A stretch of 19,497 nucleotides of DNA from a virus. Location: the UHGV virus genome UHGV-0127427. One strand, written 5' to 3'. The position numbers and the translations under genes are program-made. Positions 4,727 through 19,478 of the stretch are shown piece by piece (position 1 is the first letter of the stretch; every line of letters begins with the position of its first letter). The notes below the pieces were generated by a model, which was given only the letters and a program-made list of their open reading frames with translations, searched no databases and had not been told where the DNA came from.

Positions 4727-4779
4727 GATGCAGAGAGTTAGGATATTGATATGAACATCTAAGCACCTCATTACTGTGC

Positions 4780-5232
4780 TTAAAAGATGTTATCCTTACC
4801 TGTTAATTTACCTTGAGGAACTTTAGTGAGCTCCATCCGATAAAATGCTTTTATCATATTTACAAATGGCTCATATGGTGAATATTCGTTGTCTTGTTTA
4901 GTAACGGTGTCTGTCATTGTCCTGATGTAGTCTGCGCTTACCACGTTGTTGTTTGCTTCAATTAGTACCGGCCTGCCGTTCATGAAGGGATCACGCAACC
5001 TTACACGCTGGCCAACTCGACCGGTAATAAAGCTGTTTTCCTCTTCCACCAGCACGATAAAACCCTTTTCCTCTTTTTCTCGCAATTCGCGCAGCAGCTG
5101 GAGTTCCATATCGCGGCGGCGTTCAGGGTAGCTGGTCCGCTCAGCCATTATCAGCTCATTGTTGATCCATGCAGCAGTCATTGACGCCGGTTTGCCGACG
5201 CTCATTGAAACAACGCATATTTTCTTATCCAT
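4780..5232 (-). CDS. mat: Mat-like protein (P1 mat position), 150 aa from ATG 5232
   Basis: ORF between ref and the island; ATG at 5232 preceded by GGGG; the track start at 5259 is a non-ATG upstream codon. Positional assignment. Confidence 0.45.
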   Translation of the reverse strand: MDKKICVVSMSVGKPASMTAAWINNELIMAERTSYPERRRDMELQLLRELREKEEKGFIVLVEEENSFITGRVGQRVRLRDPFMNGRPVLIEANNNVVSADYIRTMTDTVTKQDNEYSPYEPFVNMIKAFYRMELTKVPQGKLTGKDNIF

Positions 5233-5243
5233 AGCGCCCCTAC

Positions 5244-5269
5244 AAAAAAGAAAAGCCACCAGCGGCGGC
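5244..5269 (-). terminator. intrinsic terminator-like hairpin plus U-run downstream of ref, ending 11 nt upstream of the mat start
   Basis: Minus-strand sense GCCGCC-GCU-GGUGGC (6-bp stem including one G.U) followed by UUUUCUUUUUU. Confidence 0.45.
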
Positions 5270-5420
5270 TTAGCAATACAACTGAAGGTAGCGCCCGGTA
5301 CTCAGACTGTGCCGTCCATGGAATATTTGAAAGGGGATCCATCCGTACCGGGCATGTGATGATTCTGACTGAAGTCACTTGTCAGTTGTCAATCATTTAT
5401 CATTAAAAATAATATATTTA

Positions 5421-5981
5421 TTAGTGCATGATGTTTGCCATCTCATAGGCGTCAGCCAGTAACTCCATCTCTGACTTGTTCAGCAGGGTGAATTCTTTCT
5501 TGCCTCCAACCACACCATCGGCATGAACAGGGACCAGCCAGGGGTATTTTGCTCTTACTTCAGCCGGAGCTGCATGCTGGTGGTGCCATCTACAAAGAGG
5601 CAATTGCTTTTTATGACAACCCGGCGCGGTACGACCGGCGATATGGTGCAGAGACATCTCATTAGATATTACTCCATGCATATAGCAGGCAATGCAGGGG
5701 AGAGTGCCAAGAGCATTGGCGATGCGCCGTTCCTCCGCCGTTGGTGTTCTCCCCTTCAAGCCACGAGATTTTATTTTTACCGCGCTTTTCCGCGTTTTGC
5801 TGGCTGGTGGGCGCTCTTTCTGTTTAGCGATACGGCGGTCGAGAGTATCCCGCATTTTCTGATATTGAGATTCTCGCCAGACCGGATCAGCCAACTTCTC
5901 CCGTTGCCGAGCGATCGCTCGTTCTCTGGCTGCCTTCTGCCACTTGCGGCACTGTTCAATTTTTTGTTCGATTGTTTTCAT
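5421..5981 (-). CDS. ref: Ref, recombination enhancement function (HNH-family endonuclease), 186 aa
   Basis: 186-aa ORF starting MKTIEQKIEQCRKWQK with Cys/His-rich HNH core (CIACYMHG...HH...CHKKQLPLCRWHH); matches P1 Ref as I recall it; located between mat and cra/cre as in P1. Confidence 0.9.
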   Translation of the reverse strand: MKTIEQKIEQCRKWQKAARERAIARQREKLADPVWRESQYQKMRDTLDRRIAKQKERPPASKTRKSAVKIKSRGLKGRTPTAEERRIANALGTLPCIACYMHGVISNEMSLHHIAGRTAPGCHKKQLPLCRWHHQHAAPAEVRAKYPWLVPVHADGVVGGKKEFTLLNKSEMELLADAYEMANIMH

Positions 5982-6081: not shown

Positions 6082-6098
6082 CGATATATTAGAGCAAT
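6082..6098 (-). promoter_or_regulatory. C1 operator-like site (Op2-type) overlapping a candidate ref promoter
   Basis: Minus-strand sense ATTGCTCTAATATAT (14/17 to ATTGCTCTAATAAATTT) directly followed by CGC and a perfect TATAAT, about 90 bp upstream of ref. Confidence 0.65.
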
Positions 6099-6204
6099 GA
6101 TAGATATTTTGTTTATCGCTAATCACATTTTTTCACTTCAGTACCTGTGTGCTATACTCCTTCTTGATTGATTGGATGCGGAATACAAACCCGCTCTTTT
6201 GTGC

Positions 6205-6232
6205 AGCCTGGCTCCTTGCCAGGCTTTTTTTT
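6205..6232 (+). terminator. plus-strand intrinsic terminator (AGCCUGGC-UCCUU-GCCAGGCU followed by U8)
   Basis: 8-bp GC-rich stem, 5-nt loop and a run of 8 T on the plus strand; no plus-strand CDS upstream, so it probably ends a short non-coding transcript. Confidence 0.5.
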
Positions 6233-6542
6233 ATTTCATCATGGAAGTTGTTAACGCTTTGGACCTTGCTGAACTGATTGAGAGGGCTTTGTCAACGTGC
6301 CCCAAAAATTCGCCAAACTCAGACATCACTTTAGCAAAACCGCGCCGTGCTTCTTCCTCGGTGGCATTCATCACGAAATGTTCAGCACCACGCATACTTT
6401 TGACAGGGAACGCAACGGATATTGAATCAATATCAGGCATTCTATCGCTCAGCTTTACAGTGACAATGACGGCTGGCGACTGAATATTAGTGCTTACAGA
6501 CAGCACTACATATTTTCCGTCGATGTTGAAATCCTTTCTCAC
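6231..6542 (-). CDS. Cra-like hypothetical protein (cre-associated position); start uncertain (GTG 6542 or ATG 6440)
   Basis: ORF immediately downstream of cre on the same strand with protein-like composition (EEEARRGFAKVMSEFGEFLGHVDKAL); no strong RBS at either start. Confidence 0.4.
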   Translation of the reverse strand: MRKDFNIDGKYVVLSVSTNIQSPAVIVTVKLSDRMPDIDSISVAFPVKSMRGAEHFVMNATEEEARRGFAKVMSEFGEFLGHVDKALSISSARSKALTTSMMK

Positions 6543-6558
6543 ATGTCACCATAAATAT

Positions 6559-6575
6559 CAAAGAATTAGAGCAAT
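6559..6575 (-). promoter_or_regulatory. C1 operator-like site in the cre-cra intergenic region
   Basis: Minus-strand sense ATTGCTCTAATTCTTTG (13/17 to consensus; first 11 positions perfect). Confidence 0.5.
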
Positions 6576-6592
6576 CATTTACGCGTTAATGG

Positions 6593-7624
6593 CTAATCGC
6601 CATCTTCCAGAAGGCGCACCATTGCCCCTGTTTCACTATCCAGGTTACGGATATAGTTCATGACAATATTTACGTTGGTCCAGCCACCAGCTTGCATGAT
6701 CTCCGGTATTGAAACTCCGGCACGGGCCATATCTCGCGCGGCTCCGACACGGGCACTGTGTCCAGACCAGGCCAGGTACCTCTGGCCAGAGTCATCCTTA
6801 GCCCCGTAAATCAATCGGTGAGTTGCTTCAAAAATCCCTTCCAGGGCGCGAGTTGATAGCTGGCTGGTGGGTGATGGCGAGGCAACACCATTTTTTCTGA
6901 CCCGGCAAAACAAGTAGTTATTCGGATCATCAGCCACACCAGAGACAGAAATCCATCGTTCGACCAGTTTAGTTACCCCCAGGCTAAGTGCCTTCTCTAC
7001 ACCCGCGGTACTAACCAGAGTTTTCGTTCTGCCAATATGGATTAGCATTCTCCCACCGTCTGTACGTGAGATATCTTTAACCCTGATCCTGGCAATTTCG
7101 GCTATACGTAACAGGGTGTTATAAGCGATCCCCAGAAATGCCAGATTACGTATATCCTGGCAGCGATCGCTATTTTCCATGAGTGAACGAACCTGGTCGA
7201 AATCAGTGCGTTCGAACGCCAATGCCTGTTTTGCACGTTCACCGGCATCAACGTTTTCTTTTCGAATCCGCCGCATGACCAGTGAAACAGCATTGCTGTC
7301 ACTTGGTCGTGGCAGCCCGGACCGACGATGAAGCATGTTTAGCTGGCCCAAATGTTGCTGGATAGTTTTTACTGCCAGACCGCGCGCCTGAAGATATAGA
7401 AGATAATCGCGAACATCTTCAGGTTCTGCGGGAAACCACTTCCGGTTATTCAACTTGCACCATGCCGCCCACGACCGGCAAACGGACAGAAGCATTTTCC
7501 AGGTATGCTCAGAAAACGCCTGGCGATCCCTGAACATGTCCATCAGGTTCTTGCGAACCTCATCACTCGTTGCATCGACCGGTAATGCAGGCAAATTTTG
7601 GTGTACGGTCAGTAAATTGGACAT
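6593..7624 (-). CDS. cre: Cre site-specific tyrosine recombinase, 343 aa
   Basis: 343-aa ORF starting MSNLLTVHQNLPALPVDATSDEVRKNLMDMFRDRQAFSEHTWKMLLSVCRSWAAWCKLNNRKWFPAEPEDVRDYLLYLQARGLAVKTIQQHLGQLNMLHRRSGLPRPSDSNAVSLVMRRIRKENVDAGERAKQALAFERTDFDQVRSLMENSDRCQDIRNLAFLGIAYNTLLRIAEIARIRVKDISRTDGGRMLIHIGRTKTLVSTAGVEKALSLGVTKLVERWISVSGVADDPNNYLFCRVRKNGVASPSPTSQLSTRALEGIFEATHRLIYGAKDDSGQRYLAWSGHSARVGAARDMARAGVSIPEIMQAGGWTNVNIVMNYIRNLDSETGAMVRLLEDGD, near-identical to P1 Cre as recalled; loxP lies 419 bp upstream. Confidence 0.97.
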   Translation of the reverse strand: MSNLLTVHQNLPALPVDATSDEVRKNLMDMFRDRQAFSEHTWKMLLSVCRSWAAWCKLNNRKWFPAEPEDVRDYLLYLQARGLAVKTIQQHLGQLNMLHRRSGLPRPSDSNAVSLVMRRIRKENVDAGERAKQALAFERTDFDQVRSLMENSDRCQDIRNLAFLGIAYNTLLRIAEIARIRVKDISRTDGGRMLIHIGRTKTLVSTAGVEKALSLGVTKLVERWISVSGVADDPNNYLFCRVRKNGVASPSPTSQLSTRALEGIFEATHRLIYGAKDDSGQRYLAWSGHSARVGAARDMARAGVSIPEIMQAGGWTNVNIVMNYIRNLDSETGAMVRLLEDGD

Positions 7625-7631
7625 TTAACAC

Positions 7632-7853
7632 TCAGACAATAGTTTTAAGTAAAGTGTACAGGATTGGCTCTGCCTTTACCTGTTTATGGTTCTCGTCATA
7701 GAAACGCCAGCGACCGCGCGTGCGTTCTATTTTCTCTTCACCGCGCGATAATGACAGTTGGCAACTATCACGATCAAACCCTTTTGCCCGCCAGTAACCA
7801 CGGTTTTTCTCAAGCTCAAGATGAGTGGACACTTTAGCAGCTGAATATCCCAT
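7632..7853 (-). CDS. hypothetical 73-aa protein immediately upstream of cre
   Basis: ATG 7853 preceded by GAGGTG at 4-nt spacing; stop 7 nt before the cre ATG; basic protein (MGYSAAKVSTHLELEKNRGYWRAKGFDRD...). Not a P1 gene I can name. Confidence 0.4.
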   Translation of the reverse strand: MGYSAAKVSTHLELEKNRGYWRAKGFDRDSCQLSLSRGEEKIERTRGRWRFYDENHKQVKAEPILYTLLKTIV

Positions 7854-7950
7854 TTTTCACCTCTGATTGATTGGTGGTGCTAAGTGCGCTACGCGAAATC
7901 TGGAGCACTAACACTGCCAACATTTCGCAGATTTTACGTAGCGCAACCTT

Positions 7951-8023
7951 GATCAAATGATCAAGTGATCACTATTTGACCTGATAAGGTATTGAACTGT
8001 ATGGATTTACAGGTAAATTGATC
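7951..8023. promoter_or_regulatory. GATC (Dam site) cluster in the cre upstream regulatory region
   Basis: Four GATC within 73 bp (7951-7954, 7959-7962, 7967-7970, 8020-8023) between cre and loxP; consistent with the methylation-sensitive cre promoters described for P1. Confidence 0.55.
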
Positions 8024-8042
8024 ATGTTCAATAACCCTTAAG

Positions 8043-8076
8043 ATAACTTCGTATAATGTATGCTATACGAAGTTAT
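8043..8076 (-). other. loxP: loxP recombination site (34 bp: 13-bp inverted repeats flanking an 8-bp spacer)
   Basis: Exact ATAACTTCGTATA-ATGTATGC-TATACGAAGTTAT; spacer is the reverse complement of GCATACAT, so the site is inverted relative to the plus strand. Confidence 0.97.
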
Positions 8077-8119
8077 CAGGTCCGAAGAGGAGTTTACGTC
8101 CAGCTGCGCACAAAAATCA

Positions 8120-8136
8120 AGAATTATTAGAGCAAT
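8120..8136 (-). promoter_or_regulatory. C1 operator (Op99-type) in immC
   Basis: Minus-strand sense ATTGCTCTAATAATTCT (15/17). Confidence 0.6.
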
Positions 8137-8196
8137 AAATTTTGAGAGAAAAATCCCACTCCACCAGCTAAAAACTGGATTGTTTTTCATAGTTGT

Positions 8197-8223
8197 TTGA
8201 CAATTGCTCTAATAAATTATAGT
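8197..8223 (+). promoter_or_regulatory. Candidate immC promoter with embedded C1 operator (TTGACA - operator - TATAGT)
   Basis: TTGACA 8197-8202, operator ATTGCTCTAATAAATTA 8203-8219 (16/17), TATAGT 8218-8223; upstream of coi-c1 on the same strand. Confidence 0.65.
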
Positions 8224-8457
8224 TTTGCCGCCGTTACGTAATACGACTTTGGATTCACTATTTAATGTGTCTTCAGCGTTGTAGAGCGGCTCAGAAGGAA
8301 ATGAGCAAACAGGGAAACCTTATACAATGGCATTACAGCTATGCATTGCTCATCTTACACACAGCGCAATGTTGTTAGATTACCCCAGCATGGATCATGG
8401 GTGAAACAGTAGGTCAGAGCTTCAGGCTCTGTGTTGTCAATACAGTGAGGCATAATT

Positions 8458-8667
8458 ATGGCTTTCATTCAACCAACCATCGACGACGTTAGACATTGCT
8501 CTAACGCTTTATCTGTAGACCCTGCCGAAACCGACGCTGCCAGCACCATTGCTGAACACTACTCAAAGATATCCAATCAGGACTACCGCATCACCCAAGA
8601 CGACCTGGATGACCTCACTGACACAATCGAATATCTCATGGCAACTAACCAGTTAGCCTCACAATAA
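8458..8667 (+). CDS. coi: Coi, C1 inactivator, 69 aa
   Basis: 69-aa acidic ORF directly upstream of c1 on the same strand (MAFIQPTIDDVRHCSNALSVD...); size and position match P1 Coi; GTGAGG 7 nt upstream of the ATG. Confidence 0.85.
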   Translation: MAFIQPTIDDVRHCSNALSVDPAETDAASTIAEHYSKISNQDYRITQDDLDDLTDTIEYLMATNQLASQ

Positions 8668-8777
8668 ATGCACTAATAAATCTATTATTTTTGTTTGATC
8701 CCTCTATAATATAGGTCAGTAATGACCGGTTTTCTCAACCGGGCGTTATTGACCATGTCAATTCTGGAGGAGGATCA

Positions 8778-9629
8778 ATGATAAATTATGTCTACGGCGA
8801 ACAACTGTACCAGGAGTTCGTCAGCTTCAGGGATCTCTTTCTAAAAAAAGCTGTTGCACGCGCCCAACACGTTGATGCCGCCAGCGACGGTCGTCCTGTT
8901 CGCCCGGTTGTCGTTCTGCCGTTCAAAGAAACGGACAGCATTCAGGCTGAAATTGATAAATGGACTTTAATGGCGCGGGAACTGGAACAGTACCCAGACC
9001 TCAATATCCCAAAGACTATTTTATATCCAGTGCCTAACATCCTTCGCGGTGTACGTAAGGTTACAACTTATCAGACAGAAGCTGTGAACAGCGTCAACAT
9101 GACCGCTGGCCGCATTATTCATCTGATTGATAAGGATATTCGCATCCAAAAAAGCGCGGGGTTCAATGAGCACAGTGCGAAATACATAGAGAACCTGGAA
9201 GCAACAAAAGAGCTAATGAAGCAGTACCCGGAGGATGAAAAATTCCGTATGCGCGTACACGGCTTTAGCGAAACAATGCTGCGCGTCCACTACATTTCCA
9301 GTAGCCCTAACTACAATGATGGTAAATCAGTTAGTTACCATGTGCCACTGTGTGGCGTGTTTATCTGCGATGAAACCCTCCGTGATGGAATCATCATCAA
9401 CGGTGAATTCGAGAAAGCAAAATTTAGCCTTTATGACTCCATAGAACCGATCATCTGCGACCGCTGGCCGCAGGCAAAAATATATCGCCTGGCAGATATT
9501 GAAAATGTAAAAAAACAAATTGCCATCACTCGCGAAGAGAAAAAGGTCAAATCAGCCGCATCAGTTACGCGCAGTCGTAAAACTAAGAAGGGGCAGCCAG
9601 TAAACGACAACCCCGAAAGCGCGCAATAA
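8778..9629 (+). CDS. c1: C1 repressor of lysis, 283 aa
   Basis: 283-aa ORF starting MINYVYGEQLYQEFVSFRDLF behind GGAGGAGG; matches P1 C1 in length and N-terminus as recalled; multiple cognate operators in the window. Confidence 0.95.
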   Translation: MINYVYGEQLYQEFVSFRDLFLKKAVARAQHVDAASDGRPVRPVVVLPFKETDSIQAEIDKWTLMARELEQYPDLNIPKTILYPVPNILRGVRKVTTYQTEAVNSVNMTAGRIIHLIDKDIRIQKSAGFNEHSAKYIENLEATKELMKQYPEDEKFRMRVHGFSETMLRVHYISSSPNYNDGKSVSYHVPLCGVFICDETLRDGIIINGEFEKAKFSLYDSIEPIICDRWPQAKIYRLADIENVKKQIAITREEKKVKSAASVTRSRKTKKGQPVNDNPESAQ

Positions 9630-9632
9630 ATT

Positions 9633-9654
9633 ATGCCCGGCATCAACCGGGCAT
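9633..9654. terminator. hairpin between convergent c1 and the antirepressor-like gene (possible bidirectional terminator)
   Basis: ATGCCCGG-CATCAA-CCGGGCAT, 8-bp stem, 4 nt after the c1 stop; flanks are only moderately T-rich. Confidence 0.45.
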
Positions 9655-9661
9655 TCTTCCA

Positions 9662-10429
9662 TTATTCAGCCGCCACCGGTTTTAACAAGCCAGCATCGAG
9701 CAGTTTACGCGTCAACCACTGTTGTCCTTTCCCCGTTAATTGGGGCGTCAGCCGTATCTGGTAGCCATCTTCATCATCCAGCACCACTTCTTTCACTGTG
9801 AAATATCCGGCGTTTATGTACTGCTGGAACGGCACATTTTTACGCCCGCCGGACGCTATCAGAATGCCGTTCTCCCGTAACCAGGCAAACAGCGCGTTTT
9901 GCTTCAGCCCAACAACCTTTGCAAAATTACCAATCAGGATCCCCTTAGCCACTGATACACGGTCGGCAAAATCGACCTTGGGGGCTGCGGCCACCAGTTG
10001 TTGATTTAGCTGGTGGGCCTTCTGTTCCAGTAGCTGCTTTTGTTCAGCCAGCTCGGCAGCCAGGCGCAAGGCTTCAGGTAGTGTTTGGGGGATTGCGACC
10101 GGTTGCTGTTCTTTTTGCCGGAAGTAGCTGTCTTCCAGTTTTTCAAAGAATGCCCATGCTTCATCTGTGTTTACGATCTTAGACATGCGTGCCGCTCCGC
10201 GTTCGGCCCAAAGAATTACCTGGCTTGTATATTTGCTAACCAGGTGACTAGTAGTCACCAGCCTTTTAAATTCCTTTAATTTTGAACCAGTTAAGAGATA
10301 GTAATGCTTACCTTCTTCAAAGCGATCGGAGTTGCGAGACAAATTTTTACGAATATTAGCTTCATCGGTTCCATAAGCGCAGATAAACATCGCGCTTATC
10401 GACATCCAGATGCGGGTATTCCTTTTCAA
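9662..10429 (-). CDS. phage antirepressor-like protein (ORF6N-type N-terminal region plus KilA-C/ANT-type C-terminal region); start uncertain (TTG 10429 or ATG 10405)
   Basis: N-terminal half AYGTDEANIRKNLSRNSDRFEEGKHYYLLTGSKLKEF...ILWAERGAARMSK and C-terminal half DRVSVAKGILIGNFAKVVGLKQNALFAWLRENGILIASGGRKNVPFQQYINAGYF are typical of phage antirepressors; sits where P1 has pacB/pacA/lpa. Confidence 0.65.
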   Translation of the reverse strand: MKRNTRIWMSISAMFICAYGTDEANIRKNLSRNSDRFEEGKHYYLLTGSKLKEFKRLVTTSHLVSKYTSQVILWAERGAARMSKIVNTDEAWAFFEKLEDSYFRQKEQQPVAIPQTLPEALRLAAELAEQKQLLEQKAHQLNQQLVAAAPKVDFADRVSVAKGILIGNFAKVVGLKQNALFAWLRENGILIASGGRKNVPFQQYINAGYFTVKEVVLDDEDGYQIRLTPQLTGKGQQWLTRKLLDAGLLKPVAAE

Positions 10430-10556
10430 GAATTGCTGCGAGTTCTTTCGCTGATAGAAGAGATTTAGTGCGGATCATGTAATCCGCAATCTCGTACGAT
10501 GTTATTCGTGAGTGATTTATTTCCATGAAGTGGCGTCCCTGCCAGTTAAGTAACAT
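10362..10556 (-). CDS. hypothetical 64-aa protein overlapping the 5' end of the antirepressor-like gene in another frame
   Basis: ATG 10556 preceded by AGGTGA at 4-nt spacing; ends within the first codons of the antirepressor ORF; could be a real leader gene or the product of a frameshift. Confidence 0.35.
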   Translation of the reverse strand: MLLNWQGRHFMEINHSRITSYEIADYMIRTKSLLSAKELAAILEKEYPHLDVDKRDVYLRLWNR

Positions 10557-10626
10557 CCTGTCACCTACTGATTAGCCCATGTCAACTAATCAACGTCGAA
10601 TATAATACCCTCGATTAAAGAAATAG

Positions 10627-10643
10627 CAATACATTAGAGCAAT
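10627..10643 (-). promoter_or_regulatory. C1 operator-like site upstream of the 64-aa/antirepressor unit
   Basis: Minus-strand sense ATTGCTCTAATGTATTG (14/17) beginning 1 nt after the pdcB-like stop; TTGCTA-16 bp-TATTAT promoter-like hexamers overlap it. Confidence 0.55.
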
Positions 10644-10644
10644 T

Positions 10645-11691
10645 TTATCTAACGCTCGACGAATGACTTGTGATAGCGCCGACTCCAAGCGCGTAATCAA
10701 AGAACAATCGTTGATGCATCGCCAGCCTACCGTGCGTCTTCTCCCAATTATCGCGGTCACGCTCAATATCACGCTGGCATGACTGGCACAGAGGAATAGC
10801 ATAAATGTCATGCGCGCATAATCGACTATAACGAACGATATAAGGCGTAATGTGAGCGCCAGCTCCCGCCGCTCCACACCCACAGCATGGACGGGAAGCA
10901 ACAAAGTCCATGTACTCAGGTAATTTTAGCGATTGCAGTTTTGGTATTTTGAAATGCGCCATACCTGGGTCGGAGTCAACATCCACAGGGCATACTTTTG
11001 CACGCATCGGCGCGGCGCGTTCTTCCATCATCTGAACATATGCTGTAGCGCGATCGTCATACGGGCGAATATCCGCCTCTTTCAGTGGTCCGCTATCCTG
11101 CGGAGTAGCCTTCATCTTATTTATTATTGATATGCGGCAGACTTCTTCCGGCATCAGGTGCATCATGTTGCGCATGAAAGCCCACCAGCACAGCTCCTGA
11201 ATACTTAAATCATGGCTATTTGAAAGGCCCATTTCCTGACGGGCGACATCCAGTATCCAGTTAACGCGATTATTGTGCAGCGTTTCTTTCAGCTCATTAA
11301 AACCACGCATCCGGTAATGGTTATCGTGATGCCAGCACAACAACACCGCGCTATTGTCTCGTTCAGCGTGGACAATATGGTTGTCACACCAACTACGATC
11401 TGCGGCCTGGCATTGACCCTCTTTCCTACGCAACCACGCCACCAGCGCGTCAATTCCACCAATACGGCGAAACAGTTCATCGCTGTTAAAAAACGGCTGC
11501 AACGCCTCATTTGTTGCCATGGTTTGCTCGGTAACAACGAGGCCGTCTTCCATGTGCTCGATTAACTCACGCGGCACCGGCTCCATAATAAATTTACGGC
11601 CAGCCTCCACCAGCTTTCTGACCTCCTGATCCACTTTGAACGTGGCGAGGCCAAGCTCTTTCTGTACAAAGGGAGTAATTACGGCTTTCAC
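10645..11691 (-). CDS. pdcB: PdcB-like protein (post-doc gene B position), 348 aa, GTG start, Cys-rich C-terminal region
   Basis: GTG 11691 preceded by AAGGTG at 4 nt; C-terminal CCGCG...C..C..C..C cluster suggests metal binding; assignment by position downstream of doc. Confidence 0.5.
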
Positions 11692-11718
11692 ATCACACCT
11701 TTAATCACTGATTGGGCT

Positions 11719-11898
11719 TTATCTGCTGCCCGACATTATCTGTTTAAGCACAACCATTTCCTGACGGCATAACACAGCAATAGCGGTCCTGGCACCAATT
11801 TGCTTACTAACCAGGTATTGCTTTATCTTGCGGCGACTCACGCCATCAAGAAGCATCTTTAACGCTTCACGGGACAATTTGTTGTATTTGCGTGCCAT
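11719..11898 (-). CDS. pdcA: PdcA-like small protein, 59 aa from ATG 11898
   Basis: ATG 11898 lies 4 nt after the doc stop; the track start at 11919 would overlap doc. Positional assignment. Confidence 0.45.
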   Translation of the reverse strand: MARKYNKLSREALKMLLDGVSRRKIKQYLVSKQIGARTAIAVLCRQEMVVLKQIMSGSR

Positions 11899-11902
11899 TA
11901 AT

Positions 11903-12283
11903 CTACTCCGCAGAACCATACAATCTACGTAACGTGGCGGCGACAGAAGATACAGATATCTCGCCAGTCGCAGCGCCTACAGTAAGGTCTGCCAGTTCAG
12001 GTGAATCAAATACCTGCACCCCGTTACGGCGTAGAAATAGCAGCGCACTGTTTAGCGCGGTACGCTTATTGGCATCATTGAATATATGCCCTCTCGCTGT
12101 AGCCACCAGGTAGGTGGCGGAGACTTCGAAAAGGTCGGTGATCTCTTCGTAGGCAACTCTGGCCTGAACTCTCCCGATAATGGCCTCTGCCCTACCCGGA
12201 TCTGACATTCCCGGCAGGCCGCCGTAGCGGTTTATATTCGCATCATGAAGCGCAATAAGTTCTTCCGGTGATATATGCCTCAT
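11903..12283 (-). CDS. doc: Doc toxin (Fic-fold kinase) of the phd-doc addiction module, 126 aa
   Basis: 126-aa [50 protein letters not shown]...; start overlaps the phd stop by 1 nt (TAATG), as in P1. Confidence 0.95.
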
Positions 12284-12504
12284 TATCGGTTAACCAGTTC
12301 CTTGTTGGTGGAGTCCAGGGTGTCAAACAGGGATGCAAATTCAGCATCCAGCGCCGCTTTTTTGTAGGCTTCGAAAGTAGCCTTGCTGACAATTACTGCT
12401 GGCTCACGGCCTCTGCGGGTGATTTCAACCTCTTCCCCGGCTTCAACATTGTTGAGCACTTCAGAAAGGTTGCCGCGCGCGGTACGGAAGTTAATGGATT
12501 GCAT
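12283..12504 (-). CDS. phd: Phd antitoxin, 73 aa
   Basis: [73 protein letters not shown] from ATG 12504 (two codons inside the track's start); matches P1 Phd. Confidence 0.95.
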
Positions 12505-12684
12505 AAACACCTCGTGTACTCGTTATGTGTACACAATTATAAACTTCACAGGCATAAAGCACCAGCACTTTGCAGCTTAAATCACCGGACAATCATCAAA
12601 TTCCCCACTTCGGGCATCATTAATGACATGAGTGATCACACCAAACACAGCATTACTCCCCGTGCATCCATCGTCATCCACTGG

Positions 12685-12966
12685 TCACGCCTCTTTCTTC
12701 CCGGTGCTTAAATCCTCCAGGTGCTGGCGCGGATACTTTCGGTATCTCTTTATGCGATATTCACCCTCCATAGCGCACACAAGCAGCGAACCATCAACTG
12801 GAGTAAGCGAAGAATCAACCACCAGCAAAGCACCCTGCAATATTCCCTCACGGTGATGGCTATCAGCTGCCCGCATGAAGTAGGTTGCTGATGGATGTCT
12901 AATTATCTGCTGATCAAGAGAAATTCGGCTTTCAACATAATCCGCCGCAGGAGAAGGGAAACCCAT
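12685..12966 (-). CDS. humD: HumD, UmuD'-like translesion synthesis accessory protein, 93 aa
   Basis: ORF upstream of phd-doc on the same strand with a UmuD'-like C-terminal region; GAGGT before the ATG; LexA box 19 bp upstream. Confidence 0.8.
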   Translation of the reverse strand: MGFPSPAADYVESRISLDQQIIRHPSATYFMRAADSHHREGILQGALLVVDSSLTPVDGSLLVCAMEGEYRIKRYRKYPRQHLEDLSTGKKEA

Positions 12967-12984
12967 AGCGTTTTACCTCAAAAA

Positions 12985-13004
12985 TACTGTTTATCTATAC
13001 AGCA
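12985..13004. promoter_or_regulatory. LexA box (SOS operator) upstream of humD
   Basis: TACTGTTTATCTATACAGCA, i.e. CTGT-N8-ACAG with AT-rich core. Confidence 0.7.
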
Positions 13005-13140
13005 TACATTAAAGAAGCACCTTTGGTGCAAACGCGTTATGTACATCAACCACCGCTGATGATTTTTGTGCGCTTTGCTACTATTCATCACCGCGGGATC
13101 AGCGTAACCTCGTTGCCAATCAGTTAATAAGGAATTAGCT

Positions 13141-13725
13141 ATGCCTAATCGCATTCCTCTCGATCCTGTATTGCCCAAAAATTTTGACTGCACTCCTAAC
13201 GAGAAACGCTCTAAAGCTCAGCTGGACGCCTAGTGGGACCATCCATATGGGGTTACACAACCTGACGGGAAAATTGTAGTTTATTGTCTGAATGGTGGGG
13301 CGTGGGACCGTCCATCCGTGCTTTGTTTGGCAGATAACTATGATGAAGCCTGTGAACTTGCCGAAAGACAGCAGGCAAGCTGGGTAAAAACACGGTCTGA
13401 ACCGACATTCATGTTTTCAAAAGAACCGCCATTTATACTGGCGAGGATGCCGCAGCGACCGGATCATCAACAAGAAATTGTTGCTGAATTTTCCTCAAGG
13501 GATGAGATGAATCTCTTCTCATTAAAGCAGGAAGAAAGGGATCGCGTCGAAGTGTCTCCAACTCTCGACCACAACCGGATGAACCTGGCCCAGCTCGCCT
13601 GGTACAGCAAAGAATTAGAGATGTCTATTGCCCGGCTTGAAAACGAAAAAGCCGCTATCCAAGTCCAGCACGAAGTAGTTCTGAACCGGATTAGAGAAAT
13701 GCAAAACGATAACAGGGGATTTTGA
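13141..13725 (+). pseudogene. hypothetical gene interrupted by an in-frame amber codon (30 codons, TAG at 13231-13233, then 164 more codons in the same frame)
   Basis: ATG 13141 has a good RBS (AAGGA, 8-nt spacing). The frame has a single TAG and continues open to 13725; the only in-frame restart (GTG 13318) lacks an RBS. Confidence 0.45.
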
Positions 13726-14082
13726 ATGGCTAAAATCGAGTACCATCGCGATCGCGGTAATTACCTGGAAATATACGATCATGAATCTCTTAACGATATC
13801 AACGATGCGTTATATGAATACTGTGAAAAAACGAGCATCACAGATGCACCTGATGCATTTGTCGAGCTGCCGGTATATCTCCGCGACATCTATGCAATAC
13901 GAACACCGCCCGTATCGGTGATTCACATTGGCTATGTCCGCCTGTCCATCGAAGAAGATGAAGATCGTTATATCGTGCGCCACTATACATTGGACAGAAA
14001 AGAACTTCCTAATGAATGGAACATGAGTAATTTCTACAACGGTGAATATGGCTTAAAATCCGCTAATAATTTACGGTCATAA
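13726..14082 (+). CDS. hypothetical protein, 118 aa
   Basis: ATG overlaps the upstream stop (TGAATG) with AGGGGA 9 nt upstream; acidic protein, no recognised motif. Confidence 0.5.
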   Translation: MAKIEYHRDRGNYLEIYDHESLNDINDALYEYCEKTSITDAPDAFVELPVYLRDIYAIRTPPVSVIHIGYVRLSIEEDEDRYIVRHYTLDRKELPNEWNMSNFYNGEYGLKSANNLRS

Positions 14083-14618
14083 TCTATACAGGCATGTATA
14101 ACAACAACGAGCCTATTAGCTGTCAACAACGTTATTTCCTCAAATAAGAAAAAGCAGAAAACAAATTGTTTAAGGTCACAAATTGTGGCCTTGATGGAGG
14201 AGGGAGGCTTATTGGCTATGGCTAAAAATCAAATTAGACACTTCATGTTGCTGTAGCTCATCAAGATCCGAGGCCACAAAACCTTTTCCGAAAAACTTCA
14301 CAAGTAACTCACTAGCCGCATCATTGTCACCTATTACACGAAAGTCATACGGCAACGTCGCAAGTTGACGATGTAATCCTGCTGAGAAAGTCGAATCTAA
14401 CAGCGCCCAGAATTCCCACCGCAGGATAATACTCGCCTCTTAATACTGTATATATGTTGTTACGATATGTTTTTCTGTCTCTAAAAAAAGATGTTTGAAG
14501 GGGATAAAAATATACAATTCCAACAAACGTTATTTTTAACAATTTTTTTCTTTGCGTTGACTTTCCCGGACACCTTGTCTGACCGAAGGTGCGCGAAAGC
14601 CACTTTTTCCTTCCTGAG

Positions 14619-14639
14619 TTATCCACAAAGTTATGCACT
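14619..14639 (+). promoter_or_regulatory. two tandem DnaA-box-like 9-mers
   Basis: TTATCCACA (14619-14627, perfect consensus) and TTATGCACT (14631-14639, 8/9) in direct orientation, 3 bp apart, inside an AT-rich non-coding stretch. Confidence 0.4.
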
Positions 14640-14927
14640 TGCAAGAGGGCCATTTTCTACATATTGTGGTGGCTAACAGATGAAATGAATGTAGATTAAT
14701 TGAAGATAAGGAGAAAATTTGAGATGCAATCATGACGTTAATAGATAGGGTCTGCATTACAGACCCCACCCGCATCAAGGAATTAGCCGTTCCCTGATGT
14801 TTTTCCGAAAACATGTGCCGTAAGCTCACGTTAACGACTTTCATTCACCGAATCCAACTATATAGGGGTTGGGTTTCTACGTCAACGTGAGCAAGTGCAC
14901 CTTTACATTTGACAAGGAACCACCTGA

Positions 14928-15065
14928 ATGAACGCTTTTTTTCAGTTCCTGAGTGCATTTTTAGATGCGCCTATTATTAGCCAGATTCTGGCTATTATCC
15001 TCATCATCGTTTTGATTTTGCTTTTAAGGTCAGTAAAAAATGGAATTATGCACTGGCTTACTTAA
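14928..15065 (+). CDS. small hydrophobic peptide, 45 aa (single predicted transmembrane helix)
   Basis: MNAFFQFLSAFLDAPIISQILAIILIIVLILLLRSVKNGIMHWLT; AAGGAA 8 nt upstream of the ATG; a perfect 9-bp inverted repeat overlaps the stop codon. Confidence 0.3.
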   Translation: MNAFFQFLSAFLDAPIISQILAIILIIVLILLLRSVKNGIMHWLT

Positions 15066-15140
15066 TGTTTCAGTGAAACATTAAAATCTCCTTGATGTGG
15101 AAACAATCATTTTCTGTATGTGCTGGTGGGCACCTGTAGT

Positions 15141-15503
15141 TCAGCTTTCGTTGGCATTTAACTTCGTCTTTGCTTTCTCCACCAGCAACTTCCAGATGCC
15201 TATTTCATTAGCAGCCGCCTTGATGGCGGCATAAAAAGCATCTTGCTGATCGTAACGCTGGATCTGTTTTTTCAGTTTTGCCTCCACCAATTTAATTTCA
15301 TTACGTGCTTTCTGAAGCCGCATCACCGCCCGGTTACGTCTGTTCTTGTATAGCGTGTTAATCTCTGACAATTGCTTTAATTTACCAGCCTGACTGCGGA
15401 TTATCGCCTCCCTGGCTTCTGCCGTGCGTCTCATCTGATCTCTTAAGAGTTCACCGTTTTCGATAATTCTTTCAAGGTGTTTGATGTGATCTGCAACTCT
15501 CAT
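15141..15503 (-). CDS. hypothetical coiled-coil protein, 120 aa
   Basis: ORF whose start overlaps the upstream gene's stop (ATGA); heptad-rich, charged sequence. Confidence 0.5.
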   Translation of the reverse strand: MRVADHIKHLERIIENGELLRDQMRRTAEAREAIIRSQAGKLKQLSEINTLYKNRRNRAVMRLQKARNEIKLVEAKLKKQIQRYDQQDAFYAAIKAAANEIGIWKLLVEKAKTKLNANES

Positions 15504-16381
15504 ACTTCACCCTCGCTTGTATCACCAGCGTCCACCAACGACAATAAAGCCCTGGCCATCTTATGAACCAACAGTGCATCAATAATGCCAAGCGTATGCC
15601 CCGGCTTAATGTTTAATGCTGCCTCAAGATGACACCTTTCCAGACCGCTTTTCTCGGCTTGTTTATGATGATATGGCGTAATAACGTCGCCCAAAACACG
15701 GCTAATTCTTTCTCGTAATTGCTGGGTGCCAGCACACTTGATCGCTGTATCGTGGAGACGGTTAACCAGTTCGCGATAAACATGCGGCTTAATGCGGATA
15801 CGTTCACCGGTGACGCCCTTTCCTGGCGTAGGCACCGAACTATCCGGAATATCCGGATAGTTGCCAGCCAGTCTACGCAAAACAGCCTTAATTGCATCAA
15901 TACGGTCATCATCAACTTTTTCTACAATATTGGAATTTAAATACTTCGAAGCCTTGCTATGCCAATCGCTGGTTTTAGGGTCTTGTCCATCCATCAAACG
16001 CCAAGCTTCAGCGATTAACTCATAGCCAGTAACAGTGGCTTCCTGCGCATCACCAATCAGTTGTGTGATCTCTCTTTCAAGCATGCTTAGAGCGTTAGGC
16101 ATTGGTTTTTCTTCCGGTACTACTGGAACGGGGGGAGCGGCGTAGACCTCAATAATTCCATTATCAATAGGCCATTCTCCATCCTTGAGGTAGTCACTTG
16201 TGCCGTCAACTTGCTGTTCTGCAATGTGGAATGCACCTATTGGTTTTGCTTCCAGTGATGCCAGAGCAATTCGTGCCAGTTCTTCCGCTTCTTCTGCTGG
16301 CAGTACAACGTTGCTACCAGGTCCGTATGTTTCGCGCCACTGCTTGATTGTCAGTAGTCGCTCTTTGGTAATAGTGGTCAT
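15500..16381 (-). CDS. hypothetical protein, 293 aa
   Basis: ATG 16381 preceded by AGGAAA at 7 nt; no motif recognised. Confidence 0.55.
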   Translation of the reverse strand: MTTITKERLLTIKQWRETYGPGSNVVLPAEEAEELARIALASLEAKPIGAFHIAEQQVDGTSDYLKDGEWPIDNGIIEVYAAPPVPVVPEEKPMPNALSMLEREITQLIGDAQEATVTGYELIAEAWRLMDGQDPKTSDWHSKASKYLNSNIVEKVDDDRIDAIKAVLRRLAGNYPDIPDSSVPTPGKGVTGERIRIKPHVYRELVNRLHDTAIKCAGTQQLRERISRVLGDVITPYHHKQAEKSGLERCHLEAALNIKPGHTLGIIDALLVHKMARALLSLVDAGDTSEGEV

Positions 16382-16465
16382 GCCGCGTTTCCTTCTTTCT
16401 TATTAACAATTACACCGTCATATATTTCATTAAGGTGGCGAACAACAAGAAACTGATTTCCGACT

Positions 16466-16603
16466 TCACGGACTTCGTTGCTTTCCAGTTCTGCTATCCA
16501 TAAAAATGAAATGGACGCTAACGCCAGCTTTTCGCTGTGCTTCCATCAGATGAACGAGATAAGCCGATGTTCGTCCACCTGAAAAGCTGACGACTTGATG
16601 CAT
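16466..16603 (-). pseudogene. 5' remnant of a PP-loop (PAPS-reductase-like) gene, 45 codons then stop
   Basis: Encodes MHQVVSFSGGRTSAYLVHLM... carrying the SGGxxS PP-loop signature, but terminates after 45 codons; the remainder of such a ~250-aa domain is absent. Confidence 0.4.
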
Positions 16604-16612
16604 ACTCACGGT

Positions 16613-17191
16613 TTATTCCTGAATGCGCTTAAACTCGATTACCCATACCAACGGGTTAGATAGCCAGTTATCCTGCCCGTAAATACTGCGCCAGATATCA
16701 CCAAAACCAACGCGATAAACAGCTTCAGATGGCGTAATCTTGTACGTCGCCGGAGTTGCGCCTTCTGCTTTAGCATCTTCCTCGCTCATGTCATGCAGCC
16801 GTTCCACACGCACGTCGGTAATTTCCAAAAGAATGCGCGATGCCCAGCGCGGCATGTGAATTGATGGCGTCCACTTTTCTGATACTGGTTTATTACAAAC
16901 CTCGACCGGAACCCGGTGCGTTTGTTCTGTCCAGGAGTTACGCACGCTTGCGCGATAAACCAGCGTTGCGACGTCCGTCGCTTTGCCATGTACCCGGTAG
17001 GTTTCGCGAACCCAAATACGATCGCCCGGTTGACCATATGGACAATGCTTGGCAAGCAACTCTGCGGCCACTGCCCGTCCATAGAATTTTTCTTCAACAA
17101 TCCTGCGAGTCTGTGTTTTATTCCCGCCAAGAATTGCCCGGACCATCTCATCGTTAAAAATCATGCCGCGCTCTTTCACTTCGCCTTTCAT
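16613..17191 (-). CDS. hypothetical protein with ASCH/PUA-like N-terminal motif, 192 aa
   Basis: N-terminal MIFNDEMVRAILGGNKTQTRRI resembles the ASCH-domain GxKxxExR signature; AGGGGGA precedes the ATG at 17191. Confidence 0.45.
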   Translation of the reverse strand: MKGEVKERGMIFNDEMVRAILGGNKTQTRRIVEEKFYGRAVAAELLAKHCPYGQPGDRIWVRETYRVHGKATDVATLVYRASVRNSWTEQTHRVPVEVCNKPVSEKWTPSIHMPRWASRILLEITDVRVERLHDMSEEDAKAEGATPATYKITPSEAVYRVGFGDIWRSIYGQDNWLSNPLVWVIEFKRIQE

Positions 17192-17200
17192 GCATCCCCC

Positions 17201-17287
17201 TTACCCATGTGCGACGATGCCGCCAAAAGTGATAGAGAACAGCCAGAAATAGATCGCGGCCATAATGATTTTGAATGCCGTGTTCAT
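17201..17287 (-). CDS. small hydrophobic peptide, 28 aa, translationally coupled to the downstream ASCH-like gene
   Basis: MNTAFKIIMAAIYFWLFSITFGGIVAHG; CAGGAG 8 nt upstream of the ATG; its stop overlaps the RBS of the next gene. Confidence 0.3.
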   Translation of the reverse strand: MNTAFKIIMAAIYFWLFSITFGGIVAHG

Positions 17288-17315
17288 ATTTTCAGCTCCT
17301 GTGATTGATTGGATA

Positions 17316-17346
17316 CATGCCGCGCCTTGCGGCATGTTTTTATTTT
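17316..17346 (+). terminator. plus-strand terminator-like hairpin (CAUGCCGC-GCCUU-GCGGCAUG followed by UUUUUAUUUU)
   Basis: 8-bp stem, 5-nt loop, T-rich tail on the plus strand, 4 nt after the GATTGATTGG motif; both flanking genes are on the minus strand. Confidence 0.4.
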
Positions 17347-17369
17347 CACTTTCTCTGTTTTAAAAATCA

Positions 17370-17386
17370 TTATTTATTAGAGCAAT
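17370..17386 (-). promoter_or_regulatory. C1 operator-like site upstream of the small-peptide/ASCH unit
   Basis: Minus-strand sense ATTGCTCTAATAAATAA (15/17), overlapping the stop of the HAD-like gene. Confidence 0.6.
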
Positions 17387-17892
17387 TATTGTTGATGGAG
17401 AAGCGCGTTTTCATACTCCCTGACCATTAACGTAAGCACGCCGTGCCTCCTGAAAACACGCGCCACTTCAATCTTATCTTCCAGCGCGAACGCAATTTTG
17501 CTTAGACCAATTTTCTTAAGGAGATCAATCTTTGCTGGACCGTCATTTCTGTCATCGGTGGCGGGACGCATAGATAGCAAAGGCTCTGCCCCATTTGTTA
17601 CGTGCTTACGCAACCAGGCTCGTGTTTTATCCCTGGCTATCTCACAGCGCCCGGTTACAAACCAGAGCGTGTAAATGCTGGACAACTGGCGCACCATATC
17701 AATAACTGGAGTGATGGAAGCATCAGTGTCACAGGCAAGGTTAAACTCGTTCCAGTGCTCTGTTAATGCACCGTTGCCAGGCGGTGGAAGTAAATGCAGC
17801 CTGTCTTCCGTTGCCTCCGATATCGTTCCATCAATATCTACTATGACAATGTACGGACGTTCCTGGTGTGCGTGTTTATTGAAAATACTCAA
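17386..17892 (-). CDS. HAD-superfamily phosphatase-like protein, 168 aa, TTG start
   Basis: HAD motif I DxDGT in IVIVDIDGTISEA; TTG start preceded by GAGGAGG at 4 nt; no ATG alternative nearby. Confidence 0.55.
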   Translation of the reverse strand: MSIFNKHAHQERPYIVIVDIDGTISEATEDRLHLLPPPGNGALTEHWNEFNLACDTDASITPVIDMVRQLSSIYTLWFVTGRCEIARDKTRAWLRKHVTNGAEPLLSMRPATDDRNDGPAKIDLLKKIGLSKIAFALEDKIEVARVFRRHGVLTLMVREYENALLHQQ

Positions 17893-17911
17893 ATGCCCTC
17901 CTCATTGGACG

Positions 17912-17942
17912 AAAAAAATGCTGGTGGGCGCACTCCACCAGC
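17912..17942 (-). terminator. intrinsic terminator downstream of the 420-aa gene
   Basis: Minus-strand sense GCUGGUGG-AGUGCGC-CCACCAGC followed by AUUUUUUU. Confidence 0.5.
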
Positions 17943-17964
17943 ATTAAAAGTGACACTGTAACTA

Positions 17965-19227
17965 TCAGCGAACGTAAATAGTGCCGCCGTTCACTTTTTC
18001 CCATGCATCGCTAAGTGCATAGCAAACATCAAGAAGTCTTCTTGCCGCTGTTTCCTCTAAACCCAATTCGACAACCAACTGCTCATGACGGCGGGTAACC
18101 ACATCAAACAGGGTATGCAGCCCTTTAGCTGCCAGATCATCAATAAATTCCGGTTCGAACGGCAGCTCTGCATCTGCCAACATAACCTCTTGCGCCCACT
18201 CAACTCGACGGACCAGTTCCGGGCGGCGGCTTTCCATCTCTTTACAGATCAATTCATGGAAGAACTCTACCCAACCTTCCGGCTGGAACTCGCGGAAAAT
18301 TGCCAACGGCTGGAAGTTTGGCATCAACCATTCGTTGATTCGGATATCAATGGCATAGCCCATGTCGCAGCAGAACTGATAAGCAAAGTCCAGCTTAGAA
18401 ACGATATAAGGACGCTCGTTATTGAACTCTTTAGGCGATGAGATCCCATAAGCCAGGAGGCGCGGGAAGAATGAGATTTGCCCTAACGTCGGATGGAGTT
18501 TGCTTGCAGGAAAACGGCGCTCAGTAATGCCATACATTTCCTTCTTGAGCGTCGCAAATTTAGCATTTTCATTAACCAGCGCGGTAACCTCTGCTTTTTT
18601 ATTAGCAAATGCCACGCGCGCTTCGCTTGCATCTTTAATAGTTTTTTTGAGCTGTTGGTTAAGATCGGCGACCTGCTTACGCAGTTCCTGTCGCTCGCTT
18701 TTAGCTTTGTTATAGCGTTTCTCAAGGTTAAAAGGATCAAGTTTCATGATCTCTTTATATTGAGATTTTAGCGTTGAAATCTGTGAGTTCCGCAGTTCAA
18801 CCATCGCGGTCATTTCATTGAGTTTTGTTTCCAGCTCAATGCTTATACGTTCGGCATTATCAGCACGCTGGTTGGCGTCATGCGTCGCATCGTCGATCGC
18901 GTCCTGTTGCTGGCGTTTCAAATGTTCAATTTGCAGCTGAAGCTCTTCAATTTCTTTACCCTTCAGACCGAGATCCAACTGCATATTTTCAGCTGCATCT
19001 ACCAGGGAGTTATGGCTATCAGCTTCTGCGTTATAAACATCAATAAGCTGTGCGTGAAGCATCTCCGCTGACTGAACCGCATTATCAAAAAAACGCGCTG
19101 TGAGGTCATCACAACTAACGCGGCGTTGCGCGGCCCGGATGTTCTGGATAATGGCCGGGATACCGGCATTCAGGACGTCAGGGATAGATACATTTTCGAT
19201 TGATTGGTTTTGTGCTGAAGTGCTCAT
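17965..19227 (-). CDS. hypothetical protein, 420 aa, long central coiled coil plus globular C-terminal region
   Basis: ATG 19227 lies 1 nt after the upstream 72-aa ORF stop; central ~200 aa are heptad-rich (E/K/Q/L); no catalytic motif recognised. Confidence 0.55.
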   Translation of the reverse strand: MSTSAQNQSIENVSIPDVLNAGIPAIIQNIRAAQRRVSCDDLTARFFDNAVQSAEMLHAQLIDVYNAEADSHNSLVDAAENMQLDLGLKGKEIEELQLQIEHLKRQQQDAIDDATHDANQRADNAERISIELETKLNEMTAMVELRNSQISTLKSQYKEIMKLDPFNLEKRYNKAKSERQELRKQVADLNQQLKKTIKDASEARVAFANKKAEVTALVNENAKFATLKKEMYGITERRFPASKLHPTLGQISFFPRLLAYGISSPKEFNNERPYIVSKLDFAYQFCCDMGYAIDIRINEWLMPNFQPLAIFREFQPEGWVEFFHELICKEMESRRPELVRRVEWAQEVMLADAELPFEPEFIDDLAAKGLHTLFDVVTRRHEQLVVELGLEETAARRLLDVCYALSDAWEKVNGGTIYVR

Positions 19228-19228
19228 T

Positions 19229-19447
19229 TCAAAGTTCCGTATTAGCTTGTGCTTCGGTCATTTTTCCTAAGTATGAAGGAGGAAGGACTACGCAATTTGT
19301 ATCCAGTCCCTCACCTATGGCAGCCTGTAAAATTCTGGCTAAGGTGAGTCTCTTGTTGCGATACCTGGTGATGACATGCCTGATACCGCCGGTCGGCGTA
19401 ACAAAGGCGATCAGCCAGTAGTGATATTTCCGTCGGAATGGCCACAT
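19229..19447 (-). CDS. hypothetical protein, 72 aa
   Basis: ATG 19447 preceded by AAGGTG at 4 nt; coupled to the 420-aa gene. Confidence 0.4.
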   Translation of the reverse strand: MWPFRRKYHYWLIAFVTPTGGIRHVITRYRNKRLTLARILQAAIGEGLDTNCVVLPPSYLGKMTEAQANTEL

Positions 19448-19461
19448 AGTGCACCTTGTAG

Positions 19462-19478
19462 ATTGTTCTAATAAAAAA
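19462..19478. promoter_or_regulatory. C1 operator-like site upstream of the 72-aa/420-aa unit
   Basis: ATTGTTCTAATAAAAAA (13/17) about 15 bp upstream of the 72-aa gene start. Confidence 0.4.

Follow-up and report, generated by a model that had tools for sequence, protein, structure and literature searches.

Dispersed C1 operators of probable P1 inheritance, and an antirepressor remnant placed behind one of them by an apparent deletion, in a P1-like plasmid prophage

The window analysed here is the whole 19,497-nucleotide stretch of DNA taken from UHGV virus genome UHGV-0127427. The 19.5-kb window shows 97-98% identity to P1-family phages and phage-plasmids, SJ46, P1, P7 and RCS47 among them, and to many E. 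coli plasmids; by its sequence it represents the immC side of a plasmid prophage of the P1 type. Its orientation is the reverse of that of the P1 reference, and loxP lies within it at 8041-8074. Read from left to right, it carries a darB-like methylase gene, ulx, lxc and a short segment foreign to P1, with an EAL-domain fragment and small open reading frames (ORFs), followed by mat, ref, c8, cre, cra, loxP, imcAB, coi and c1. The remaining genes all lie on the minus strand; they are, in the same left-to-right order, ant', lpa', pdcB, pdcA, doc, phd, humD, pmgV, a pmgU-type gene, a pmgT-type gene, pap, pmgS and pmgR. Among complete records, the plasmid pMRE162 comes nearest, with 99.9% identity over 88% of the window, together with a 111-kb plasmid at 98.4% over 96%. 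A first-pass annotation had marked seven sites in this DNA as operators of the repressor C1 and had placed several of them in front of non-canonical cargo. Here we report that the sites are very probably the dispersed, asymmetric 17-bp operators of a P1-type C1 repressor, in an element that would have inherited its C1 regulon. The main result is a correction: these appear to be textbook P1 C1 operators in textbook places, and no evidence was found for new induction-specific cargo.

The repressor system is encoded in the window. The c1 gene (8778-9629, plus strand) specifies a protein 99.3% identical to P1 C1 (C1.100), which scores 609.6 bits against the NCBIfam equivalog phage_rep_C1 (NF041318; cut-off 500). 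The product of coi (8458-8667, plus strand), the C1 inactivator, is 91% identical to P1 Coi, and the translation of lxc (bof; 2793-3041, plus strand), which codes for the co-repressor that strengthens C1 binding, is identical to P1 Lxc. In P1, C1 is the repressor of lytic functions, lpa among them, and has about 20 asymmetric 17-bp operators at dispersed positions; its binding is strengthened by Lxc, and Coi and Ant inactivate it (PMC8546580, where the operator consensus is described too).

The P1 operator catalogue was taken from the protein_bind features of the annotated record AF234172. A position weight matrix (PWM) was trained on the 10 P1 C1 operators outside the window-homologous part of P1 (Op21, 51, 53, 55, 68, 72a, 72b, 82, 83 and 86a), and the background was modelled by 300 first-order Markov simulations of the window. 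Coordinates and match counts of the seven sites were all confirmed: against the consensus ATTGCTCTAATAAATTT they match at 16/17 (8203-8219, plus), 15/17 (8120-8136 and 17370-17386, both minus), 14/17 (6082-6098 and 10627-10643, both minus) and 13/17 (6559-6575, minus, and 19462-19478, plus). A consensus search with up to three mismatches returned six matches where 0.10 were expected, a number reached in 0 of 200 dinucleotide shuffles. The 11-nt core ATTGCTCTAAT is present in six exact copies, and in ten copies when one mismatch is allowed, against 0.68 expected. The PWM scan gave nine sites at 12.9-24.4 bits, compared with 0.42 expected at 12.9 bits or more; five of them score beyond every simulated maximum, and sites of 15.3 bits (6082, 6559) are each expected 0.09-0.10 times per window. 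As a proxy for the whole replicon we used the 76.9-kb pMRE162 as a specificity control, in which all sites of at least 12 bits fall within the 14 kb of window-homologous DNA and none within the other 63 kb. PWM matches at 14057, 3211 and 17495 (7.8-9.8 bits) were ruled out as operators, being within background expectation.

A formal PWM scan had been proposed as a check on the seven sites, and it sets the group far above background, not so the two weakest members (10627 and 19462) taken singly. The same scan and the alignment to P1 showed the list to be incomplete by four to five further sites, Omat, Oc1a, Oc1b and Oc1c having been overlooked. That the matches are chance AT-rich 17-mers in AT-rich intergenic DNA would fit the 12.9-bit sites taken singly, such scores being expected 0.42 times per window, and Oc1c, whose 6.5 bits is a score at which 6.8 matches are expected. 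It does not fit the six exact cores, the shuffles, the 63 kb of non-P1 pMRE162 DNA devoid of sites at 12 bits or above, or the exact positional orthology with P1. Chance is refuted for the set as a whole, and we assign it practically no probability.

Positional orthology was established by coordinate mapping and alignment to the P1 protein_bind features, which placed 6 of the 7 sites first proposed, and 10 of the 11 found in all, on P1 operators. The sites share with those of P1 (AF234172/NC_005856) the 17-bp asymmetric consensus and the placement with respect to genes and promoters, and the P1-annotated -35 and -10 hexamers of P2ref, Pmat/LPmat, Plpa and P1/P2pmgT are kept almost base for base around the sites. 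Omat (former Op2b; 5414-5430, minus strand; CATGCACTAATAAATAT; 20.6 bits) overlaps the 3' end of ref upstream of Pmat/LPmat and corresponds to P1 2628-2645, with flanks and promoter identical. Oref (former Op1/Op2a; 6082-6098, minus strand; ATTGCTCTAATATATCG; 15.3 bits) lies between the -35 and -10 hexamers of P2ref and corresponds to P1 1962-1978; its 3' half differs from P1 by a few bases and varies among relatives, and its core is kept in 35 of 38 sampled relatives.

Around the c1 operon, Oc1e (Op99e; 8120-8136, minus strand; 24.4 bits) faces cra/cre and is the orthologue of P1 94724-94740. Oc1d (Op99d; 8203-8219, plus strand; 22.9 bits) sits within the promoter P1coi, is the orthologue of P1 94641-94657 and is identical in 32 of 32 relatives. 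The weak Oc1c (Op99c; 8495-8511, plus strand; ATTGCTCTAACGCTTTA) lies inside coi, matches the consensus at 12/17 and is identical to P1 Oc1c. The bivalent Oc1ab (Op99a,b; 8667-8694), composed of Oc1a (8667-8683, plus strand; 22.5 bits) and Oc1b (8678-8694, minus strand), lies over Pc1 and corresponds to P1 94166-94193.

On the far side of c1, Olpa (Op94; 10627-10643, minus strand; 12.9 bits) overlaps the -35 hexamer of Plpa and is identical to P1 89904-89920 and in 16 of 16 relatives; the promoter hexamers are conserved with respect to P1 down to the lpa ATG, and the operator, unlike that of P1, now fronts a 64-codon lpa stub. OpmgT (Op88; 17370-17386, minus strand; 21.2 bits) overlaps the pmgT promoters and corresponds to P1 84293-84309, from which its 3' half differs by a few bases. 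OpmgRb (Op86b; 19462-19478, plus strand; 12.9 bits) corresponds to P1 82201-82217 and lies between pmgR and the pmgR promoter, which, together with Op86a, is a few bases beyond the end of the window. The core of OpmgRb is mutated, reading ATTGTTCT in the window versus ATTGCTCT in P1, and its 12.9 bits compare with 18.4 bits in relatives. This C5-to-T change is common to pMTY9803 (L004, 18978-18994) and was not found in pMRE162, SJ46, RCS47 or P1.

Several of these observations tell against calling every site a working operator. The two 12.9-bit sites, 10627 and 19462, do not singly rise above background; Oc1c (8495) and Oc1b (8678) are not separable from it on score alone; and the C5-to-T change in OpmgRb hits a position that is C in 19 of 20 annotated P1 operators, so that this site may be weakened and may no longer bind C1. 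The case for the weak sites (6082, 6559, 10627 and 19462) comes from orthology and conservation, not from score alone.

Because the repressor system and its operators are orthologous to those of P1, we take the P1 mechanism of C1, Coi and Lxc to apply to the window. By analogy, C1, aided by Lxc, would bind each operator inside or beside a sigma-70 promoter, and bound C1 would block early transcription of ref, mat, cra/cre, coi-c1 (as autoregulation), lpa, the pmgT unit and pmgR/pmgS; Oc1d would control imcAB, coi and c1. The proposal that the sites are C1 operators and the genes downstream of them prophage-repressed early functions stands in this form, through orthology with P1 only.

The first-pass annotation fared differently over what lies behind the operators. 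It had named an antirepressor-like module, a small-peptide/ASCH unit and a unit of 72-aa and 420-aa ORFs as non-canonical cargo, a description that is wrong in two cases and reflects a deletion artefact in the third. Such cargo could mean that C1 operators were recruited in front of newly acquired, uncharacterised genes with novel induction-specific functions, which we regard as highly improbable. The genes downstream of the sites are not absent from P1; only ant' is non-P1 at its position, and it is a truncated remnant. The 72-aa and 420-aa ORFs are pmgR (19229-19447, minus strand; 100% identical to P1 PmgR) and pmgS (17965-19227, minus strand; 99% identical to P1 PmgS; phrog_1660, PmgS-like), behind the annotated Op86a/b; in P1, pmgR is essential and acts in head completion/joining (PMC9024508).

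The supposed small-peptide/ASCH unit is P1's own small ORF plus a divergent pmgT allele behind Op88. The first gene of this unit is a small hydrophobic ORF (17201-17335, minus strand) of 44 aa, shortened to 28 aa if translation starts at an internal ATG, which has an AGGAG motif. It is followed by a PmgT-type gene (16613-17191, minus strand) of 192 aa, with 43% identity to P1 PmgT residues 1-239 and a match to phrog_874 (function unknown; E = 1.2e-83). Beyond Op88, P1 and the window have nearly the same sequence across the small ORF and as far as the MKGEVKER with which the following gene starts. The label ASCH for the 192-aa protein was not upheld, the Pfam ASCH profile (PF04266) giving 16.9 bits (E = 0.011), below its gathering cut-off of 21.2 bits; a weak ASCH-like similarity is possible. 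This sub-threshold hit apart, Pfam gave no match above threshold for four unknown proteins (192-aa, 293-aa, 44-aa and C8), and NCBIfam gave none for these four or for the ant remnant.

In favour of recruitment, the Op88 unit of relatives such as SJ46 and RCS47 holds 8-10 extra genes of unknown function, which shows that accessory genes can sit in C1-controlled units; they correspond to an interval between pap and lxr already known as a region of difference (PMC6906374). Against it, pmgR/pmgS and the small ORF with pmgT belong to P1 itself and stand behind operators that P1 has as well, and the truly foreign genes of the window, among them the EAL-domain fragment (4163-4726) and the ORFs at 3301-3813 and 13318-14082, had no above-background operator-like site near them in the PWM scan of the window.

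Further features were observed in and beside the Op88 unit. A hairpin with a 10-bp stem at 17315-17337, followed by TTTTTATTTT, reads as an intrinsic terminator of the plus strand and overlaps the first ATG of the minus-strand small hydrophobic ORF (17201-17345 region); hairpin and ORF are conserved alike in P1, whose record leaves the ORF unannotated, and the layout recalls small toxin/antisense pairs. At 16466-16609 (minus strand), a 47-codon ORF opens with the SGGxxS motif of a PP-loop, resembling the N-terminus of a PAPS reductase, and appears to be the sole stump left of the accessory Op88-unit genes of SJ46 and RCS47. Only residues 1-239 of the 309-aa P1 PmgT align to the 192-aa gene of the window, and the C-terminus of the window's 293-aa protein corresponds to P1 PmgU with 93% identity (window 15500-17191; L001 9244-10313). 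P1 PmgT looks like a fusion product, and the overlapping pmgT/pmgU of laboratory P1 may itself be a deletion derivative. The adjacent Pap is 95% identical to P1 Pap.

The third case concerns the antirepressor-like module. The operator said to front it is Olpa, which belongs to lpa. An ant-type gene absent from P1 at the same position does lie downstream of this operator, as recruitment would have it, and the structure of that gene points the other way. The truncated lpa' (10362-10556, minus strand) consists of 61 Lpa codons, three foreign codons and a stop, and covers positions 1-47 of the 131 of the Pfam BPP1_LPA profile. Homology to P1 stops at 10374; there follow 710 bp that make up the 3' two-thirds of an ant gene, in a frame other than that of lpa'. 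The 5'-truncated ant' (9662-10429, minus strand) retains part of ORF6N (5.6e-12) together with KilAC and matches Pfam ANT (1.8e-31). Over its C-terminal 179 residues it has 76% identity to P1 Ant1 180-345, and relative to RCS47 Ant about 142 N-terminal codons are gone, the start included; DNA identity to the 3' two-thirds of RCS47 ant is 93%. It is probably a pseudogene, and the pMRE162 copy is marked as one in the annotation of the Prokaryotic Genome Annotation Pipeline (PGAP).

A deletion seems to have joined lpa codon 61 to about ant codon 143, out of frame. From the breakpoints compared with P1, RCS47 and pMTY9803, the window has lost the 3' part of lpa, pacA, pacB, the module's own operator, the C4 RNA, icd and the 5' end of ant. 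The four components of an immI-type module that RCS47 has (its own C1 operator, C4 RNA, icd and a full-length ant) are all missing from the window, where an Rfam search found nothing and hence no C4 RNA beside the ant remnant. Because ant' is truncated, out of frame and devoid of its own operator, C4 and icd, we interpret its place behind Olpa as a deletion scar and not as cargo equipped with an operator. The alternative that ant' is a deliberately Olpa-controlled gene was ruled out by the out-of-frame illegitimate junction, the 2-bp microhomology and the differing junctions in close relatives.

The intact form of the module is present in RCS47 (FO818745) between pacB and c1 (L006, 11539-11840), where we found a C1 operator of 20.2 bits and behind it, by Rfam, a C4 antisense RNA (75.4 bits) and isrK (60.2 bits); its icd product is 80% identical to P1 Icd and its ant product 54% identical to P1 Ant1. 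To judge from these components, the RCS47 accessory module is a full second immI-type immunity module. The insertion of ant between pacB and c1 has already been reported (PMC6906374), and RCS47 ant and the ant' of the window occupy the same place beside the c1 stop codon. Two degraded plasmids of P1 descent, pMRE162 (NZ_CP119405/CP119401) and pMTY9803_untypable1 (NZ_CP135674), are 99.7-100% identical to the window over c1-ant'-lpa'-pdcB and likewise have neither pacAB nor the 3' end of lpa. The junctions differ: the 3' end of lpa is joined to about ant codon 27 in pSF10EC-2, and lpa codon 66 is joined to ant in frame in pMTY9803, which yields a 381-aa Lpa(1-66)::Ant ORF. Both pMTY9803 and pMRE162 keep 251 bp that are gone from the window, whose extra 251-bp deletion, with a 2-bp microhomology, breaks the frame (loci compared: window 9662-10556, L004 6931-8076 and L005 4063-5397). 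These comparisons suggest that the lpa-pacAB segment has been lost recurrently during prophage-to-plasmid decay, by independent deletions ending in the accessory ant. Loss of lpa-pacAB beside c1 would then be a simple marker of such decay, of use in annotating and classifying P1-like phage-plasmids.

At least around lpa-ant, the element would be a decaying prophage whose C1 regulon was inherited and not newly recruited to cargo. One fact weakens the case for the loss of these genes, namely that the closest complete relatives cover only 88% and 96% of the window, so that lpa and pacAB could sit elsewhere in the replicon. A further reading goes beyond decay of this segment and holds that the sites are inherited relics without present regulatory consequence, c1 autoregulation excepted, in a recently decayed and domesticated plasmid that has no lytic programme; we consider this conceivable, at somewhat less than an even chance. 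It agrees with the truncation of lpa and the absence of pacA and pacB from their place, all three genes being essential in P1 (PMC10695390), with the mutated Op86b core in the window and pMTY9803, and with the apparent frameshift in the darB-like methylase gene. It also agrees with the state of pMRE162, from which PacA/B, RepL, Ban and the genes for tail and lysis are gone, and in which cellulose-synthase and metabolic genes have been acquired as cargo. Intact c1, coi and lxc (99%, 91% and 100% identity to P1) speak against it, as do the mostly unchanged operators and promoters, by which ref, cre and the operon of c1 itself should still be under C1 repression. The idea of relics bears on what the sites do now, not on what they are, and can stand beside our preferred explanation of the sites as inherited C1 operators. 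As an observation on pMRE162 itself (NZ_CP119405.1; L053 and L138), this 76.9-kb P1-derived plasmid keeps c1, lxc, par and the sheath and major capsid genes, and has lost the packaging, lytic replication (repL, ban), tail and lysis genes; its cargo comprises bcsABC cellulose synthase, dcuC/malic enzyme and an autotransporter.

What has been described so far is P1 biology already known, and the new residue consists of the recurrent lpa-pacAB-ant deletions and one unannotated site upstream of c8. This site (6559-6575, minus strand; ATTGCTCTAATTCTTTG; 15.35 bits), for which we use the candidate name Oc8, sits in the interval bounded by the stop codon of cre and the start codon of c8; it is 16 nt upstream of the latter and has the same orientation as c8. 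The c8 gene (6231-6542, minus strand) has a putative role in the establishment of lysogeny, and its product is 92% identical to P1 C8. P1 and P7 read ATTGCTATAATTATTTG at this place, with the core ATTGCTATAAT, and no operator is annotated there in either record, which makes it the sole site of the window missing from the P1/P7 catalogue. Their C-to-A change creates a TATAAT hexamer and falls at core position 7, where 19 of the 20 annotated P1 operators have C.

For the c8 site, 82 relatives were gathered via the C8 protein, independently of flanking DNA. The core ATTGCTCTAAT is exact in 77 of them, three carry ATTGCTCTGAT and two the P1 form. Over 42 distinct haplotypes, mean column conservation is 0.996 in the core, 0.80 in the 17 nt just upstream and 0.955 in the stretch to the start codon. 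A distant comparison was available from Cronobacter phage JK004 alone, since a scan of genome_contigs gave two close E. coli loci and a scan of viral_contigs gave relatives of at least 86% identity. JK004 is a distant relative, with 79% identity in Cre, 83% in C1, 65% in Ref and only 48% in C8. Its interval from the stop of cre to the start of c8 carries ATTGCTCTAATAATTTA (21.8 bits), in flanks that are otherwise unrelated. The same operator consensus is used at this locus (L055, 432-6926), with sites of 21.8-25.0 bits at the Oc1a, Oc1d/e and Oref positions and before c8. A further site of 12.3 bits was observed in JK004 inside a small ORF downstream of c8. Taken together, the comparisons speak well for a genuine operator in front of c8.

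Two points count against a role of this site in repression. No overlapping sigma-70 promoter was found at the c8 site, the Pc8 predicted in P1 lying about 60 nt upstream, and conservation extends over the entire stretch from the site down to the start codon, so that the constraint could be one of translation initiation and not of C1 binding. Because of the upstream position of the predicted Pc8, C1 at this site would act as a roadblock. That 6559-6575 is a functional C1 operator, present in most natural P1-like plasmids, we judge to be evenly balanced against its being none. If it is one, laboratory P1 and P7 would have lost Oc8 through the C-to-A change in the core, c8 would join the C1 regulon in wild elements, and P1 and P7 may express c8 differently. 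The site offers a small new lead for annotation, as a candidate addition to the C1 regulon of P1-like phage-plasmids.

Two minor features were noted at the left side of the window. Near 1646 (ORFs 50-1693 and 1627-2322), the run GGGAAAATC is one A shorter than in SJ46 and pMRE162 and splits the frame of the darB-like methylase/helicase, which may reflect a true frameshift or a sequencing error in the homopolymer. The mat gene (within 4163-5344) is present as a shortened allele: its 159-aa ORF aligns to P1 Mat at 52% identity, an internal gap included, and is followed by the EAL-domain fragment on the opposite strand, the interval between ref/mat and lxc being a known insertion hot spot.

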